A DNA stretch of 4,919 bases, from the IMG/VR virus record IMGVR_UViG_2913123054_000007, positions 1 to 4,919 of that record; one strand, written 5' to 3'. The notes under the pieces were generated by a model. It saw nothing but the letters and a program-made list of their open reading frames with translations, had not been told where the DNA came from and made no database searches. The translations under genes were made by a program, and so were the position numbers. Source of the DNA: a virus. Taxonomy: Duplodnaviria; Heunggongvirae; Uroviricota; Caudoviricetes. Shown one piece after another: positions 1 through 4,919 of this stretch. Each line of letters starts with the position of its first letter. The first letter of the stretch is position 1.

Positions 1-342
1 ATGATGAAAAAAAGTATATTGGCGTTTTTGTTGCTCACCAGTTCCACTGCGGCGCTGGCGGCTCCTCAGGTAATTACCGTCAGCCGTTTTGAAATTGGCA
101 AAGACAAATGGGCGTTTAATCGCGAAGAAGTGATGTTGACATGCCGACCAGGTAATGCGCTGTATGTCATTAACCCCAGCACCCTGGTGCAATACCCTTT
201 GAACGATGTTGCGCAAAAAGAGGTTTCCAGTGGGAAGACTAAGGCCCAGCCTATTTCAGTGATCCAGATTGAAGATCCCAACAAACCCGGTGAAAAAATG
301 AGCCTGATGCCATTTATAGAACGAGCTGAAAAACTTTGCTGA
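1..342 (+). CDS. yebY: Small secreted/periplasmic protein with N-terminal signal peptide, YebY-like (DUF2511-type, from memory)
   Basis: ATG at 1, stop TGA 340-342, 113 aa. The N-terminus [22 protein letters not shown] is a classic Sec signal peptide with an AxA cleavage motif. The sequence matches my recollection of E. coli YebY; this was not verified by search. Confidence 0.8.
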
Positions 343-370
343 TTACCTGAATTAGGCTTTTGATTTGCCA

Positions 371-414
371 AAAAAAACGCCCAGGATCTTTTATCAGATC
401 GGGCGTTTTTTTTA
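371..414. terminator. Bidirectional rho-independent terminator (yebY on +, antisense sRNA on -)
   Basis: A8 run 371-378, GC-rich stem 379-383/402-406 (CGCCC/GGGCG) extended by GATC/GATC 386-389/398-401, 8-nt loop, then T8 run 407-414. The A-run upstream and T-run downstream let it terminate on both strands. Confidence 0.8.
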
Positions 415-479
415 CTTTTAAAACGATGATTAAGACGCTTTTTTCTGACCACTTTTCGTGTGGACTGGAAAACCTGGCG

Positions 480-498
480 TCGTCATCTATTCTTAAAG
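480..498 (+). promoter_or_regulatory. Candidate sigma-S-type promoter for sdsR
   Basis: CTATTCTTAA at 486-495 resembles the extended sigma-S -10 consensus (C at -13 followed by TAYACT-like hexamer). No clear -35, which is common for RpoS promoters. Predicted start about 499-501. Confidence 0.5.
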
Positions 499-603
499 GG
501 CTAGGCAACTAAGCCTGCATTAATGCCAACTTTTAGCGCACGGCTCTCTCCCAAGAGCCATTTCCCTGGACCGAATACAGGAATCGTATTCGGTCTTTTT
601 TTA
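499..603 (+). ncRNA. sdsR: SdsR (RyeB) RpoS-dependent small RNA
   Basis: About 104 nt downstream of yebY with three stem-loops: GCATTAATGC region (~515-527), GGCTCT/AGAGCC (543-560), and a perfect 10-bp terminator hairpin GACCGAATAC/GTATTCGGTC (569-595) followed by T7 (596-602). The sequence and the position next to yebY match what I recall of sdsR. Ends are approximate (+/-3 nt). Confidence 0.65.
580..602. other. Candidate attL core (last ~23 bp of sdsR)
   Basis: Published work that I recall (Salmonella/E. coli ryeA/ryeB locus as an insertion hot spot) places the phage attachment core in the last ~23 bp of ryeB. That corresponds to GGAATCGTATTCGGTCTTTTTTT here, and int ends 130 bp away at 734. 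The exact core limits cannot be fixed without attR or an empty site. Confidence 0.4.
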
Positions 604-614
604 ATTGTATTTAA

Positions 615-627
615 AATCAATTGGTTG
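615..627 (+). promoter_or_regulatory. Possible IHF binding site in the att arm
   Basis: AATCAATTGGTTG matches the IHF consensus WATCAANNNNTTR, in an AT-rich segment between the candidate core and int. Confidence 0.3.
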
Positions 628-636
628 CAAACGTCT

Positions 637-668
637 CCCCGAAATTCCCCGAAATTTACTCGAATTTC
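637..668. repeat. Tandem 10-bp direct repeats CCCCGAAATT x2 plus a degenerate third copy (candidate arm-type Int sites)
   Basis: CCCCGAAATT at 637-646 and 647-656, then ACTCGAATTTC at 658-668. They lie between the candidate core and the int stop, where arm-type sites are expected. Confidence 0.3.
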
Positions 669-733
669 TGTATTCCGGTCTTTTTTGGTTATATCACAAC
701 CAAAATACATTTAACAATCCATTTACGTTAAAA

Positions 734-1810
734 TCAGAGCAGTAAGTACGTTTTTTCTCTCTCATCAAGATACATTTTTGTTGTCTTCTCCGATGTGTGG
801 CCAAGTAGACGCTGAGCAAATTCTTCTCCACATGTCTCTTTGTACAATCGTCCAGCCAGACTTCTGATCTCGTGAAAAGTTGGTGGGTTTTCACTGAACT
901 GGATACCTGTTAATTTTCTGGCTGCGACAAATTTTTTTGTCAGGCCATCCGGGTGAATGCTGCCGTCAGGGCTGTTTTTTCTAATCCCGGCACTGATTAG
1001 ATAATCCCCCCTACTTACCAGGCGGCACCGTTCAACTATTGTACCAAGCCGTAATCCAGCGACCGGAAGGTTGAGTGACAGGGGGATAGCAATCATCATT
1101 CCCGTCTTAATTTGCCTGATGTGGAGACGATCATCATAAATATCACTGAACCGCATATTCGTTATGTCTTCGCGACGTTGTCCTGTTACAAGGGCTAAGT
1201 CCATAGCTAATGGGAACCATGCCGGAAGTTGGTCTGCTGCCTCCCTGATGCAGTTGTATGTCTTTAGTTTCAGTCGTTCTCTTGTAACTACTATTTTCGG
1301 TGCTCTTGTTGGCGTTACTGGATTTTGAGATATACGTCCTTCAACAATGGCCTCGCGGAACATATCAGATAACACAGAACGCATTGATCCTGCCATCGTG
1401 TTTTTCCCTCCTTCAATCCACGAATCAAGAAACTCGGCAATATGGCGAGTGGTTATTTCTGTCAGTAAAATCCCTCCCAGTTTTTCTTTTATTGTCTCCA
1501 GTTGATTTACCCGAATTTTATAAGTATTTCTGGACACTTTTCTCCTTATAAGAATCGTTTTGTAACGTTCGATCCAGTTTGACATAGTAAATGAATCGCC
1601 CCCTTTAAGTTTTTCAATTAAGGCTACAGGAGAGTAGGTTTTGTATATATAATGATTGGCTTCAATTGCCTGTGCTACCGCATCTCTTTTTGAAATTTTA
1701 CCTAGCGTAAATTCTTCTTTTGTCAGAGGATTGCGCCAGTAGTATGCTTTGTCCCTTCTTCGATATGTTAGGTTTCTAGGCAAATTGGGATCGTATTTTT
1801 TCCGCTGCAT
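734..1810 (-). CDS. int: Lambda-family tyrosine integrase
   Basis: 358 aa, ATG at 1810, stop TGA 734-736. It aligns along its length with lambda Int from memory (PNL..YYxRxPxTxKEF N-terminal arm-binding region; [11 protein letters not shown] vs lambda HELRSLSARLY; LLGH box; catalytic Tyr in KMYLDER near the C-terminus). Confidence 0.95.
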
Positions 1811-2057
1811 TTTTTAATTTCTCCAGTAACGGACTGTCTCTCCCTTGCCGACCAGTAGGCTGATGGTTTGTTATATCGGTATCAAACTTATTTGGGTTGA
1901 TATAGAATGCCTCCGGATCCACCCTGTAACTCCTCCCGTGCAGTTCAGGTGCGGGATAAATATTTCCATTCCTGGCCCACCGTCTCAGCGTTGATATTGA
2001 TGGTGGGTTATCCGGATATCTGAGTTTCCCCCACGTTTTGAGTGTCACAAGATTCAT
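1776..2057 (-). CDS. xis: Excisionase
   Basis: TLRRWARNGNIYPAPELHGRSYRV resembles the lambda Xis winged-helix region (TVRRWVRECRIFPPPVKDGREYLF). It overlaps the int start by 35 nt, as in lambda. I chose ATG at 2057 (MNLVTLK...) because AAGAGGT lies 7 nt upstream; the track's ATG at 2063 sits only 1 nt from that Shine-Dalgarno. Confidence 0.8.
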   Translation of the reverse strand: MNLVTLKTWGKLRYPDNPPSISTLRRWARNGNIYPAPELHGRSYRVDPEAFYINPNKFDTDITNHQPTGRQGRDSPLLEKLKNAAEKIRSQFA

Positions 2058-2079
2058 TGCCATACCTCTTACGATATGA

Positions 2080-2108
2080 CCGCCAGTAAATATACAGAAT
2101 ACTGGCGG
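2080..2108 (-). promoter_or_regulatory. 9-bp inverted repeat hairpin in the only sizeable intergenic gap of the operon
   Basis: CCGCCAGTA (2080-2088) and TACTGGCGG (2100-2108) flank an 11-nt loop, between the small-ORF stop (2164) and the xis start. No T-run follows on the - strand, so it is not a canonical terminator. Confidence 0.3.
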
Positions 2109-2163
2109 GCGTGGTTGATTTTTAATAATCAGCTATGAAGTTTTAATTTGAATACAATGCAAT

Positions 2164-2352
2164 TCACGAGGACTGAAGTTGCTCGCAATTAAAATTTATC
2201 AGTTTTACTTTCTGCTCTCTGGAAACGCCTGCTTCTTTTTTACCTGAGAGCATTTTTTCGCATTCTGATTTGGTTAACTTTGTTTTTGAGTACCTTGTCC
2301 AGTTGGTAGGAGAACCACCTTCCTTTTCAATAGTGGTGGTAATTTTATACAT
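2164..2352 (-). CDS. Small basic hypothetical protein (62 aa), possibly YdaC-like by synteny
   Basis: ATG at 2352 is preceded by GGAGGTG at the right spacing; stop TGA 2164-2166. The track's 86-aa version starts inside lar and lacks an RBS. Its position between xis and lar mirrors Rac (intR-xisR-ydaC-lar). I cannot confirm sequence homology from memory. Confidence 0.55.
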   Translation of the reverse strand: MYKITTTIEKEGGSPTNWTRYSKTKLTKSECEKMLSGKKEAGVSREQKVKLINFNCEQLQSS

Positions 2353-2575
2353 GAACACCTCCATTATTATTTCCAGTGGTTCGTTTATTCCATCTTTCGA
2401 GTGCTTCTTTTTCACTTCCACCATAACCGGTTCGGGATTTGCATCCGTTACACTTCGCTCGGTAATATCCTGAAATGGCTTTCACCGTTACTGATGGACA
2501 ACCACAAAATGGACATGGTTTGACTTTTGTGTATCGAACTGGTTTTTCTCCTGTGAGCTTTGTGGCTGCGCTCAT
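2345..2575 (-). CDS. lar: Lar-family restriction alleviation protein (zinc ribbon)
   Basis: 76 aa. CPFCG...CNGC forms a C-x2-C-x17-C-x2-C motif followed by EALERWNKR, typical of the Lar family as I recall it. The start ATG (2575-2573) overlaps the exo stop TGA (2574-2572) as ATGA. Confidence 0.75.
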
Positions 2576-3252
2576 TTCCATTGCTCCCCAAATACAAAAC
2601 CAATTTCAGCCAGTGCCTCGTCCATTTTTTCGATGAACTCCGGCACCATCTCGTCAAAACTCGCTATGTACTTTTCATCCCGCTCAACCACGACATAATG
2701 CAGGCCTTCACGCTTCATACGAGGGTCATAGTTGGCAAAGTACCAGGCATCTTTTCGCGTCACCCACATGCTGTACTGCACCTGGGCCATGTAAGCCGAC
2801 TTTATGGCCTCGAAACCACCGAGCCGGAACTTCATAAAATCCCGGGAGGTGAACGGGCATTTCAGCTCAAGGCCGTTGCCGTCACTGCATAAACCATCCG
2901 GAGAGCAGGCGGTACGCATACTTTCGTCGCGATAGATGATCGGGGATTCAGTAACATCCACGCCGGAAGTAAACTCAAACAGGGCTCTGGCGTCGTTCTC
3001 GTACTGTTTTCCCCAGGCCAGCGCCTTAGCGTTAACTTCAGGAGCCACACCGGTGCAAACCTCGGCAAGCAAGGTGTGGAAGTAGGACATTTTCATGTCT
3101 GGCCACTTTTTTCCTGAGCGGGGTTTTGCTATCACGTTGTGAACGTCTGAAGCTGTGATGACACCTAGCCGTAATTTGTGCCACGCATCATCTCCCTGTT
3201 CGACAGTTCTCACGTCGATCCCGGTACGCTGCAGGATAATGTCTGGTGTCAT
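2572..3252 (-). CDS. exo: Lambda exonuclease (Red alpha)
   Basis: 226 aa, [15 protein letters not shown]...GFVFGEQWK. It is essentially identical to lambda Exo from memory, with a few substitutions. The exo ATG overlaps the bet stop as ATGA. Confidence 0.97.
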
Positions 3253-4034
3253 GCTGCCACCTTCTGCCCTGCGGCTTTCTGTTTCAGGAATCCAAGAGCT
3301 TTTACCGCCTCGGCTTGTGTCAGTTCTGACGATGCGCGAATGTCGCGGCGAAGTATCTGGGAACAGAGCGGCAATAAGTCGTCATCCCATGTTTTATCCA
3401 GGGCGATCAGCAGAGTGTTAATCTCCTGCATGGTTTCCTCGTTAACCGGAGTGATGTCGCGTTCCGGTTGATGTTCTGCAGTGCATGCGGTATTTTCGAC
3501 AATGCGCTCGGCTTCATCCTTGTCATAAATACCAGCAAATCCGAAGGCCAGACGGGCACACTGAATCATGGCTTTATGCCGTAACATCCGTTTGGGATGC
3601 GACTGCCACGGTCCGGTGATTTCTTTGCCTTCTCGGGTTTTGAATGGTTCGCGACGGCACTCATCCATCCACTCGGTAACGCAGATCGGATGATTACGGT
3701 CCTTGCGGTAAATCCGGCATGTACATGATTCATTGTCCTGCTCAAAGTCCATGCCATCAAACTGCTGGTTTTCATTTATGATGCGGGACCAGCCATCAAC
3801 GCCCACCACCGGAACAATGCCGTTCTGCTTATCAGGGAAGGCGTAAATCTCTTTCGTCCACGGATTAAGTCCGTACTGGTTGGCGACGATCAGCAGCGCA
3901 ATGAATTGCGCATCGCTGGCATTACCTTTAAATGCCGTCTGGCGAAGAGTGGCGATCAGTTCCTGCGGGTCGACAGAATCCATGCCGACGCGTTCAGCCA
4001 GCTTCCCGGCCAGTGTTGCAAGTGCTGTACTCAT
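3249..4034 (-). CDS. bet: Red beta single-strand annealing protein
   Basis: 261 aa, [26 protein letters not shown]...; near-identical to lambda Bet from memory. AGAGG sits 10 nt upstream of the ATG at 4034. Confidence 0.97.
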
Positions 4035-4039
4035 TCGTT

Positions 4040-4339
4040 TTATACCTCTGAATCAATATCAACCTGGTGACGAGCAATGGTTTCAACCATGTACCGGATG
4101 TGCTCCGCCACGCGTTCCTGAAATTCAACATCGTTATCAAATGCGCGACTGATTGCCTGTTTGCTGGCACCGTGGCGTTGCAAATGGTCGATGCAGAGCG
4201 ATTCAAACAGGTGCTGGGGCAGACCTTTTTCCAGGTCGTCCGCCAGTTCCGTTTCTTTTTCTTCGCGAACGATCTTCTGGTAGTGGCGTGACCATGCCAG
4301 CTCTTCAATGCGATCAAAAATCGGGCATGTGCTCATCAT
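4040..4339 (-). CDS. gam: Gam, RecBCD inhibitor (short GamS-like form)
   Basis: 99 aa. ...[20 protein letters not shown]...[20 protein letters not shown] matches the lambda Gam C-terminal ~95 residues from memory. The start (ATG 4339 or 4336) lies inside the 3' end of the upstream ORF. Confidence 0.9.
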
Positions 4340-4919
4340 CCGTTACCCCAAAATTTTCAAGTTTGTTTGCGATCATCATTGCAATATCCGGAATTAATGG
4401 CGCTGAGGCTATACCTGCAGGATTCGCACATAAACCGTAAACCGCCGCAATCACCACTTGTCTTTTCCAGTCGAGTTTTTCTAATGATGAAGCTGCTGCT
4501 TCGCCAGTTTCATCACTGCAATCGCGATGCGGATCGCTGCCAGCATTCTCATTGTGCGTATGTTCTGTGCCTTCCATTTCCACCGGATCATTTTCCTTAG
4601 CTTCAACCTGATTCTCTTCATCGAATGTTTCCTGGTATGTTGCGTCGCCCATCACCGCACCACAGTCAGGGCAGTTATCCCCGCCAGTCTGACCGCAGGC
4701 ATTGCAGACTATTTCCGGTTCCTGTTGCACTACTGGCTCAGGTTGTTTCACATCCGGGCTGGTTTTTTCCGTTTCTGGCGTGTTTTGTTCCGTTTCTGGC
4801 TGGTTCTGGTACACAGAATCGCGAGTCTGGATCCCCTTAACCCATTTCGGATCGTTCGGGTCGCTAATTCCGTCAACAAATTCACCACGTGATGCAGCAA
4901 GCAATTTATCGGCATCGAC
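4314..4919 (-). CDS. Acidic, low-complexity protein with CxxC-x7-CxxC zinc knuckle; function unknown (5'-partial)
   Basis: The frame is open to the window edge: the track's 'M' at 4904 is a TTG and the reading frame continues (..[14 protein letters not shown]..). Stop TGA 4314-4316. About 40 D/E versus about 12 K/R by hand count. It has a PETExxT 7-aa repeat, [16 protein letters not shown] (~4660-4708) and a more hydrophobic C-terminal ~50 aa. I recognise no family. Confidence 0.6.

Follow-up and report, generated by a model that had tools for sequence, protein, structure and literature searches.

The window analysed here (4,919 nucleotides, positions 1 to 4,919 of IMG/VR virus record IMGVR_UViG_2913123054_000007) begins with the host genes yebY and sdsR (ryeB) and continues, from position 734 onward, as a lambdoid prophage with int, xis, RalA/RalR and then exo/bet/gam-like ORFs (Table 1). 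The YebY protein (PF10709) was identical to that of conspecific genomes, and in the genomes encoding it the site was empty, with sdsR followed by pphA. The host was not E. coli, the best identity among 5,426 E. coli genomes being 93%. The conserved body of RyeA/SraC, antisense to sdsR, scored far above the gathering score of its Rfam model (37 versus 174.8 bits here); the model is without the 5' leader, which in the window is phage-derived. The terminator at 372-413 folded on the minus strand with -23.5 kcal/mol (z = -6.6), followed by U8, and its position relative to yebY is that of the K-12 RyeA 3' end. The integrase was approximately 40% identical to the Int proteins of HK022 and HK97 and 96% identical to that of phage pPE4; its PF09003 match is the lambda Arm DNA-binding domain.

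Table 1. Features of the host-prophage junction in the window, with positions counted from its first nucleotide.
Feature	Position	Strand	Basis or remark
yebY	1..342	+	113-aa ORF; host gene upstream of sdsR
Bidirectional intrinsic terminator (yebY/ryeA)	372..413	both	minus-strand RyeA 3' end expected near 370
RyeA/SraC conserved body, antisense to sdsR	462..606	-	Rfam RF00101, 174.8 bits, full length
sdsR (ryeB) small-RNA gene	503..602	+	Rfam RF00111, 118.1 bits, full length
sdsR terminator hairpin	568-596		within sdsR
att core ACAGGAATCGTATTCGGTCT, 20 bp	577..596		common to attB, attP and attL; crossover inside
Alternative pair: TTGCAA (630-625), 15-nt spacer, TACAAT (609-604)	604..631	-	also readable as TTTGCA-N16-TACAAT
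IHF consensus WATCAANNNNTTR, exact match AATCAATTGGTTG	615..627	+	read from sequence
Three tandem repeats CCCCGAAATT, CCCCGAAATT, (T)ACTCGAATTT	637..667	+	read from sequence
CTGTATTCCGGTCTTTTTTG	668..687		resembles the right half of the core plus the sdsR terminator (CGTATTCGGTCTTTTTTT); holds the predicted start region
Predicted RyeA start, A residue 5-9 nt after the -10	679..683	-	predicted from the standard -10 distance
Candidate extended -10, TGTG-A-TATAAC = TGTGATATAAC	688..698	-	TRTG at -17 to -14, variable base at -13, hexamer at -12 to -7
Candidate -35, TTGTTA	712..717	-	4/6 consensus positions; ATGTTA in most related arms
A-rich UP-element-like block	718..733	-	family consensus TTTTcTGTAAAAGAA; between int stop codon and -35
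int, lambda-family tyrosine integrase, 358 aa	734..1810	-	Pfam PF00589, PF22022, PF09003
xis (excisionase)	1776..2063	-	Pfam PF07825, E = 1.6e-14

Further into the prophage, a RalR/RalA type I toxin-antitoxin pair was present. The RalA sRNA was detected at full length at 2168-2346 on the plus strand (205.8 bits), and the RalR toxin sequence lay within an overlapping minus-strand ORF (2164-2424) with a homologue annotated as ralR in a related E. coli prophage. A lambda Red-like module at 2572-4339 comprised ORFs of 226, 261 and 99 aa, putatively exo, bet and gam. A closely related E. coli prophage carried recT and recE after ralR, where the window has the Red-like module; the recombination modules after ralR are a case of mosaic exchange between the two.

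By gene order and alignment, the window is a lambda-type attL (B-O-P') that reads yebY, sdsR, core, P' arm (597-733), int and xis. The core was delimited in a four-way alignment of the window, the empty conspecific site, K-12 and the attP of phage pPE4, in which the window followed the host sequence up to 576 and the phage sequence from 597. It comprises the loop and the right half of the sdsR terminator; sdsR itself ends in phage-derived bases, beginning at 597. This position agrees with the published attachment site, the last 23 bp of ryeB, as described for Balbontin 2008 in the account given by PMC7380047. As with Salmonella phage PhiW104, the prophage lies in the last ~23 bp of ryeB, and the 5' end and promoter of ryeA are replaced. 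The matching attR was seen in the E. coli lysogen S163-2. The K-12 ryeA promoter is situated wholly beyond the core, on the side far from sdsR, and in S163-2, which carries the same phage, the resident ryeA promoter was found at attR, approximately 42 kb from sdsR, from where it fires toward the phage P arm. As read from these alignments, the insertion separates the RyeA body from its resident promoter and leaves the body and its terminator intact. At the S163-2 attR (L203 7840-8080), the native ryeA promoter aims at pinE and the invertible segment of the tail fibre, so that a further chimeric RNA, composed of a host 5' end and a phage body, may arise in lysogens.

The known sites of the lambda P' arm are H' and P'1-3. 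The predicted IHF site of the window, a sequence match located between the core and the arm-type repeats, is likely the H' site, and related arms carried an ATCAA...TT motif at the equivalent place. The three tandem repeats are likely the arm-type Int sites P'1-3. Their CCCGAAAT motif also occurred in the P arm, at the attR of the E. coli lysogen, and the presence of the repeats in both arms next to an integrase with PF00589 and PF09003 points to putative Int binding. The segment at 668-687 was the same in E. coli-type and Salmonella-type arms, save for one T fewer in the T-run; from its sequence, it may serve as an additional Int site of the core type or belong to the start of the transcript. 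A reading of 661-686 (CGAATTTCTGTATTCCGGTCTTTTTT) as a second terminator shielding int was rejected, as this segment did not fold (-2.6 kcal/mol, z = 0.5), and no terminator was found between int and the candidate promoter site. The A-rich block next to int had a high information content across the 23 species-level loci described below. Within the phage database, the arm was present in two records only, pPE4 and a Salmonella remnant. No sequenced free phage other than pPE4 (PP818812.1) had this integrase and attP. The int and attP of pPE4 were 96-98% identical to those of E. coli prophages and the core of its attP was the enterobacterial sdsR terminator; the record is labelled 'Actinobacillus phage vB_Apl-pPE4', a host label that looks doubtful.

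The initial annotation had placed in this arm, on the minus strand, a near-consensus extended -10 promoter consisting of TTGTTA, a 17-nt spacer and a -10 element at 690-698, and had proposed it as a phage-supplied ryeA promoter. TTGTTA was indeed the complement of 712-717, and the outward direction also held: the site lies in phage DNA just past the int stop codon, which is 16 nt upstream of TTGTTA, and is aimed across the att core into sdsR. Other details required correction. The extended -10 sequence, TGATATAAC, was the complement of 688-696. In the register with A at -11, the hexamer TATAAC occupies 693-688, with A at 694 and TGTG at 698-695, and is separated from TTGTTA by 18 nt. The wording 'near-consensus' was too strong, with the -35 matching at 4/6 positions and the -10 at 5/6, without the usually critical T at -7. 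The window has C at this position, and the family of arms has either C or G.

Because T is absent at -7, the site at 688-717 was omitted by the promoter scan. It scored 7.29 bits on a simple sigma-70 weight matrix, ranking 22nd in the window; the verified K-12 ryeA promoter scored 8.8 bits on the same matrix. Dinucleotide shuffles of the whole window yielded 36 ± 6 sites of at least 7.29 bits, versus 22 observed, and when the 149-nt AT-rich arm (31% G+C) was shuffled, 74% of the sequences had at least one equal or better minus-strand site. Since shuffles match or exceed its score, the promoter motif by itself is no more than chance gives, and its significance comes from conservation and context. 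The proposed role as a phage-supplied ryeA promoter was supported in part, by the displaced resident promoter and the conserved arm module and not by the score. TG was present at -15/-14, as in extended -10 promoters, and a -35-like hexamer, an optional element of this class at 16-18 nt, stood at 18 nt; with C or G at -7 and an 18-nt spacer, the candidate promoter may be weak, if active. Three other readings of the same bases were rejected: the -10 registers GATATA and ATATAA, which lack A at -11 and scored at most 2.3 bits; a plus-strand promoter via TATATC/TATACC, whose hexamers were, by inspection, poor in most family members; and a CRP half-site at TGTGA, which, also by inspection, was TGTGG in most relatives and had no second half-site.

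Close relatives of the arm were retrieved via the integrase protein, independently of the promoter, which gave 72 viral-contig loci and, from these, 41 distinct arms. Among the 137 aligned columns 33 were polymorphic. None of the 14 positions of the -35, TG and -10 elements varied in the 41 arms; polymorphism was found at 5 of the 15 spacer positions and at the 'n' of -13. The hypergeometric probability for the invariant promoter positions was P = 0.017, a value that ignores kinship among the 41 relatives. The invariant stretches (678-693 and 709-728) were longer than the hexamers. In view of this excess, they may also have an overlapping protein-binding role.

Conservation was also followed across species, in 120 loci obtained by a scan for sdsR in a single genome of each species. 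The module was present downstream of sdsR in 23 species from many enterobacterial genera, with a consensus of TTTTnTGTAAAagAAaTGTTAA, a T-rich variable spacer of fixed length and TGTGnTATAA. This set was picked with a pattern covering TG and five -10 bases, so that the presence of TGTG in all 23 loci is partly a result of the selection, a bias that does not touch the -35, the UP-like block or the spacing. In the 41 arms retrieved via the integrase, TGTG was invariant. The -35 block, outside the selection pattern, recurred at a constant distance from the -10. Seventeen of the 23 loci were without an integrase. In an ungapped comparison with the consensus of the integrase-bearing arms, these 17 loci retained an identity of 0.86 in the UP-like block and 0.79 in the -35, versus 0.32 at the int 3' end and 0.36 in the arm-repeat region. 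The retention of the module in loci without int therefore argues against conservation for recombination: a recombination site need not outlive its recombinase, whereas a promoter on which the host depends would. The window-type module persisted in Klebsiella, Raoultella, Citrobacter and other integrase-less loci, and one Shigella flexneri genome contained the window's arm with 1 mismatch in 150 nt. By sequence comparison at these three levels (close relatives, genera and int-less remnants), no part of the arm other than the primary candidate retains promoter-like conservation. In Shigella flexneri SFBU1023 (L094), the sdsR terminator (TCCTGGACCCAATACAGGAATCATGTTGG) was unlike all others and the adjacent integrase matched residues 1-312 only; these oddities may reflect real decay or assembly errors.

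Considering the junction anatomy, the displaced resident promoter and the conservation pattern together, we think it fairly likely that the minus strand of 688-733 is an extended -10 sigma-70 promoter in the int-proximal (P') arm, replacing the lost ryeA promoter. A supporting analogy is that the verified K-12 promoter occupies the equivalent int-proximal position in a second family of sdsR-targeting elements. According to the mechanism we propose, a lambdoid prophage would integrate in the last sdsR bases and part the RyeA/SraC body from the resident promoter, and the phage module (A-rich upstream block, TTGTTA, 18-nt spacer and TGTGaTATAAC) would initiate near 681. The predicted transcript would traverse the Int sites of the arm, then the IHF site and the core, cover the whole of sdsR in antisense and end near 370, at the bidirectional yebY/ryeA terminator. 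From these predicted ends, the product is likely a chimeric RyeA of approximately 312 nt, of which the first ~80 nt would be phage sequence. SdsR would remain paired and restrained, through an antisense partner or through convergent transcription, although probably at a reduced level. Outward transcription could also spare int and xis antisense read-through.

Published data on RyeA can be compared with this prediction. In K-12, RyeA measures 272 nt; Choi et al. 2019 (PMC6610125) verified its promoter, with the -10 TATGGT and a start 38 nt beyond the sdsR 3' end, through primer extension, RACE and mutagenesis of the -10. The same study reported that ryeA transcription lowers sdsR expression and read-through via transcriptional interference and not via the RNA itself, and that RyeA pairs with SdsR, leading to RNase III cleavage (PMC6610125). 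The TATAAC of the window lies 40 bp further from sdsR than the K-12 -10. In Frohlich et al. 2012 (PMC3333887), SraC of Shigella and Salmonella was approximately 35 nt longer than that of E. coli on northern blots, which was attributed to a potential -10 box ~35 bp further upstream; judged by its position, that box would be 688-693. The predicted length of ~312 nt versus 272 nt is consistent with the longer Shigella SraC, with the reservation that the blotted Shigella strain may differ from the genome compared here. For Salmonella, PhiW104 lysogeny altered the 5' part of ryeA, with RyeA down and RyeB up (Balbontin 2008, as related in PMC7380047), and a weaker, non-consensus replacement promoter fits the drop in RyeA that this account describes. 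A literature search found no usable start-site map for sraC/ryeA in lysogens.

Three other explanations were weighed. The promoter could be real and yet be kept for the phage and not for the sake of RyeA, its function being collision with sigma-S-driven read-through from sdsR that would be antisense to int and xis; in a variant, transcription across attL/attP would modulate recombination. In either form, the RyeA-like RNA would be a by-product. The module is present in the attP of the free phage genome pPE4, ryeA transcription in K-12 cuts sdsR read-through by interference (PMC6610125), and the second terminator-like element proved to be no terminator, so that int would otherwise be unshielded from read-through. 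On the other hand, int-less remnants keep the module, which indicates host-side selection independent of int protection, and in attP no sense-oriented phage gene lies ahead of the promoter. We regard a phage-serving purpose as rather improbable; it concerns the purpose and not the mechanism, and is compatible with the explanation that we prefer.

Somewhat less probable still, and in our view unlikely, is that the motif arose by chance in an AT-rich attP arm and that its conservation stems from recombination or int functions (Int, IHF, Xis, Fis or the int 3'-UTR). Any antisense RNA over sdsR in lysogens would then be int read-through, or there would be none. The site score, which is not above that of shuffles, and the base other than T at -7 are in keeping with this explanation, as are the extent of the invariant stretches beyond the hexamers, the lack of a terminator between int and the arm, and the location of the site, with the int stop codon on one side and the arm-type sites on the other, a region in which one expects conserved sites for protein binding. 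A promoter, however, predicts the pattern seen, with TG and TATAA conserved, -13 variable and the spacer variable in sequence but fixed in length, and the lambda-like P' sites are already accounted for by 615-667. The module was found with the same spacing in 17 loci in which int and the arm repeats had decayed to background and in which recombination functions could no longer be selected. The int gene is normally silent in a repressed lysogen, yet RyeA/SraC was detected in Salmonella lysogens and in Shigella (PMC7380047, PMC3333887).

The alternative pair TTGCAA/TTTGCA-N15/16-TACAAT (631-604), which would start at ~597 in the T-tract of the sdsR terminator, was correctly located by the initial annotation (625-630 and 604-609) and was described there as weaker, although it scored higher than the primary candidate (9.0 versus 7.29 bits), was the only minus-strand site of the region in the promoter scan and would have a start coinciding with 606, where the Rfam RyeA model has its 5' edge. 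As the actual outward promoter it is very improbable, and from sequence comparison it is probably non-functional: in close relatives it was polymorphic at 3/6 positions of the -10 and 3/7 of the -35, with the A at -11 lost in some (TACAAT to TGCAAT); neither relatives with a 74% identical integrase nor the Salmonella arm had it; the pair and the IHF consensus at 615-627 overlap; and its RNA would be shorter than K-12 RyeA, yet Shigella, with the same arm, makes a longer one (PMC3333887).

The junction of the window belongs to a wider pattern downstream of sdsR. Phage-arm hallmarks were present just downstream of sdsR (first ~110 nt) in 84 of 117 species-level loci. At least two NCGAAW repeats occurred in 42 of the 117 loci (1.6 expected) and a strict IHF consensus in 12 (0.4 expected), and a homologous integrase (42-97% identity) followed sdsR in the same orientation in 33 of 123 sequences screened. 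By these counts, the sdsR hot spot reported for Salmonella extends across Enterobacterales. The K-12 ryeA promoter region itself aligned with the 3' end of a second integrase family, encoded immediately after sdsR in Lelliottia, Enterobacter, Kluyvera and Citrobacter (L012, L047, L115, L118 and L066). The K-12 sequence (L001 700-800) reads GAATGTTAAAAAACGCTGGAC...GTGTGTTATGGTTGA, compared with integrases ending in ...KKYLDARGAEYVMV (..AEYVMV), and the K-12 -10 TATGGT corresponds to the codons for Y-V-M-V of this family. In this alignment, the native K-12 ryeA promoter looks like a fossil integrase end. Whether the outward promoter is a portable standard part of sdsR-targeting elements, and every 'resident' ryeA promoter a relic of one, appears to us evenly balanced.

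RyeA is a proposed antitoxin and antisense antagonist of SdsR, a conserved regulator that depends on RpoS and acts on porin, efflux and mismatch-repair mRNAs, among others. If the relic reading is true, RyeA would be an antisense gene that phages have imposed on a conserved host sRNA, and this would account for sraC promoters that differ from species to species next to an unvarying sdsR. If prophages bring their own ryeA promoter, lysogeny would reset the SdsR/RyeA balance and would not destroy the system, and strains with different elements at sdsR may differ in SdsR-dependent stress and mutagenesis phenotypes. The phage would in effect repair an interrupted gene pair, in the way that some phages rebuild the 3' end of a tRNA gene.

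Among known systems, the window resembles the P' arm of lambda attP in having an arm-binding tyrosine integrase, int and xis next to att, and an IHF site followed by three arm-type repeats; its core is likewise lambda-like, with an inverted repeat around a ~7-bp loop. The arm of the window exceeds that of lambda by ~50 bp, which are taken up by the promoter-like module; no outward promoter is known from the lambda P' arm. With extended -10 (TRTGn) promoters the candidate shares TGTG (-17 to -14), A (-11), a base at -13 that varies and a -35 that is weak, and it is unlike them in the C or G for T at -7 of its family and in the 18-nt spacer.

Closer to the locus itself, the K-12 ryeA promoter is a sigma-70 promoter with TG upstream of its -10 (TGtTATGGT), as at the window site, and both lie just outside the sdsR 3' end and converge on the sdsR promoter. 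K-12 RyeA spans all of sdsR and ends at the yebY terminator, as does the RNA proposed for the window. The K-12 promoter differs in its sequence, in being 40 bp closer to sdsR and in having T at -7. The potential -10 of sraC in Shigella and Salmonella, placed ~35 bp further upstream (PMC3333887), may be the hexamer of the window; a S. flexneri genome carries the window's arm. The nearest case is PhiW104 in Salmonella, which, by the account of Balbontin 2008 in PMC7380047, uses the same site at the ryeB end and replaces the 5' part of ryeA with phage DNA. The host here is an Escherichia species other than E. coli and there Salmonella; RyeA was still made in the PhiW104 lysogen at a changed level (PMC7380047). 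A phage-altered ryeA is already published for Salmonella and a -10 near this place is suggested for Shigella and Salmonella; what the present analysis adds is a precise candidate element and its wide conservation. New with respect to PhiW104 are the conservation of the module across genera and its retention in int-less remnants.
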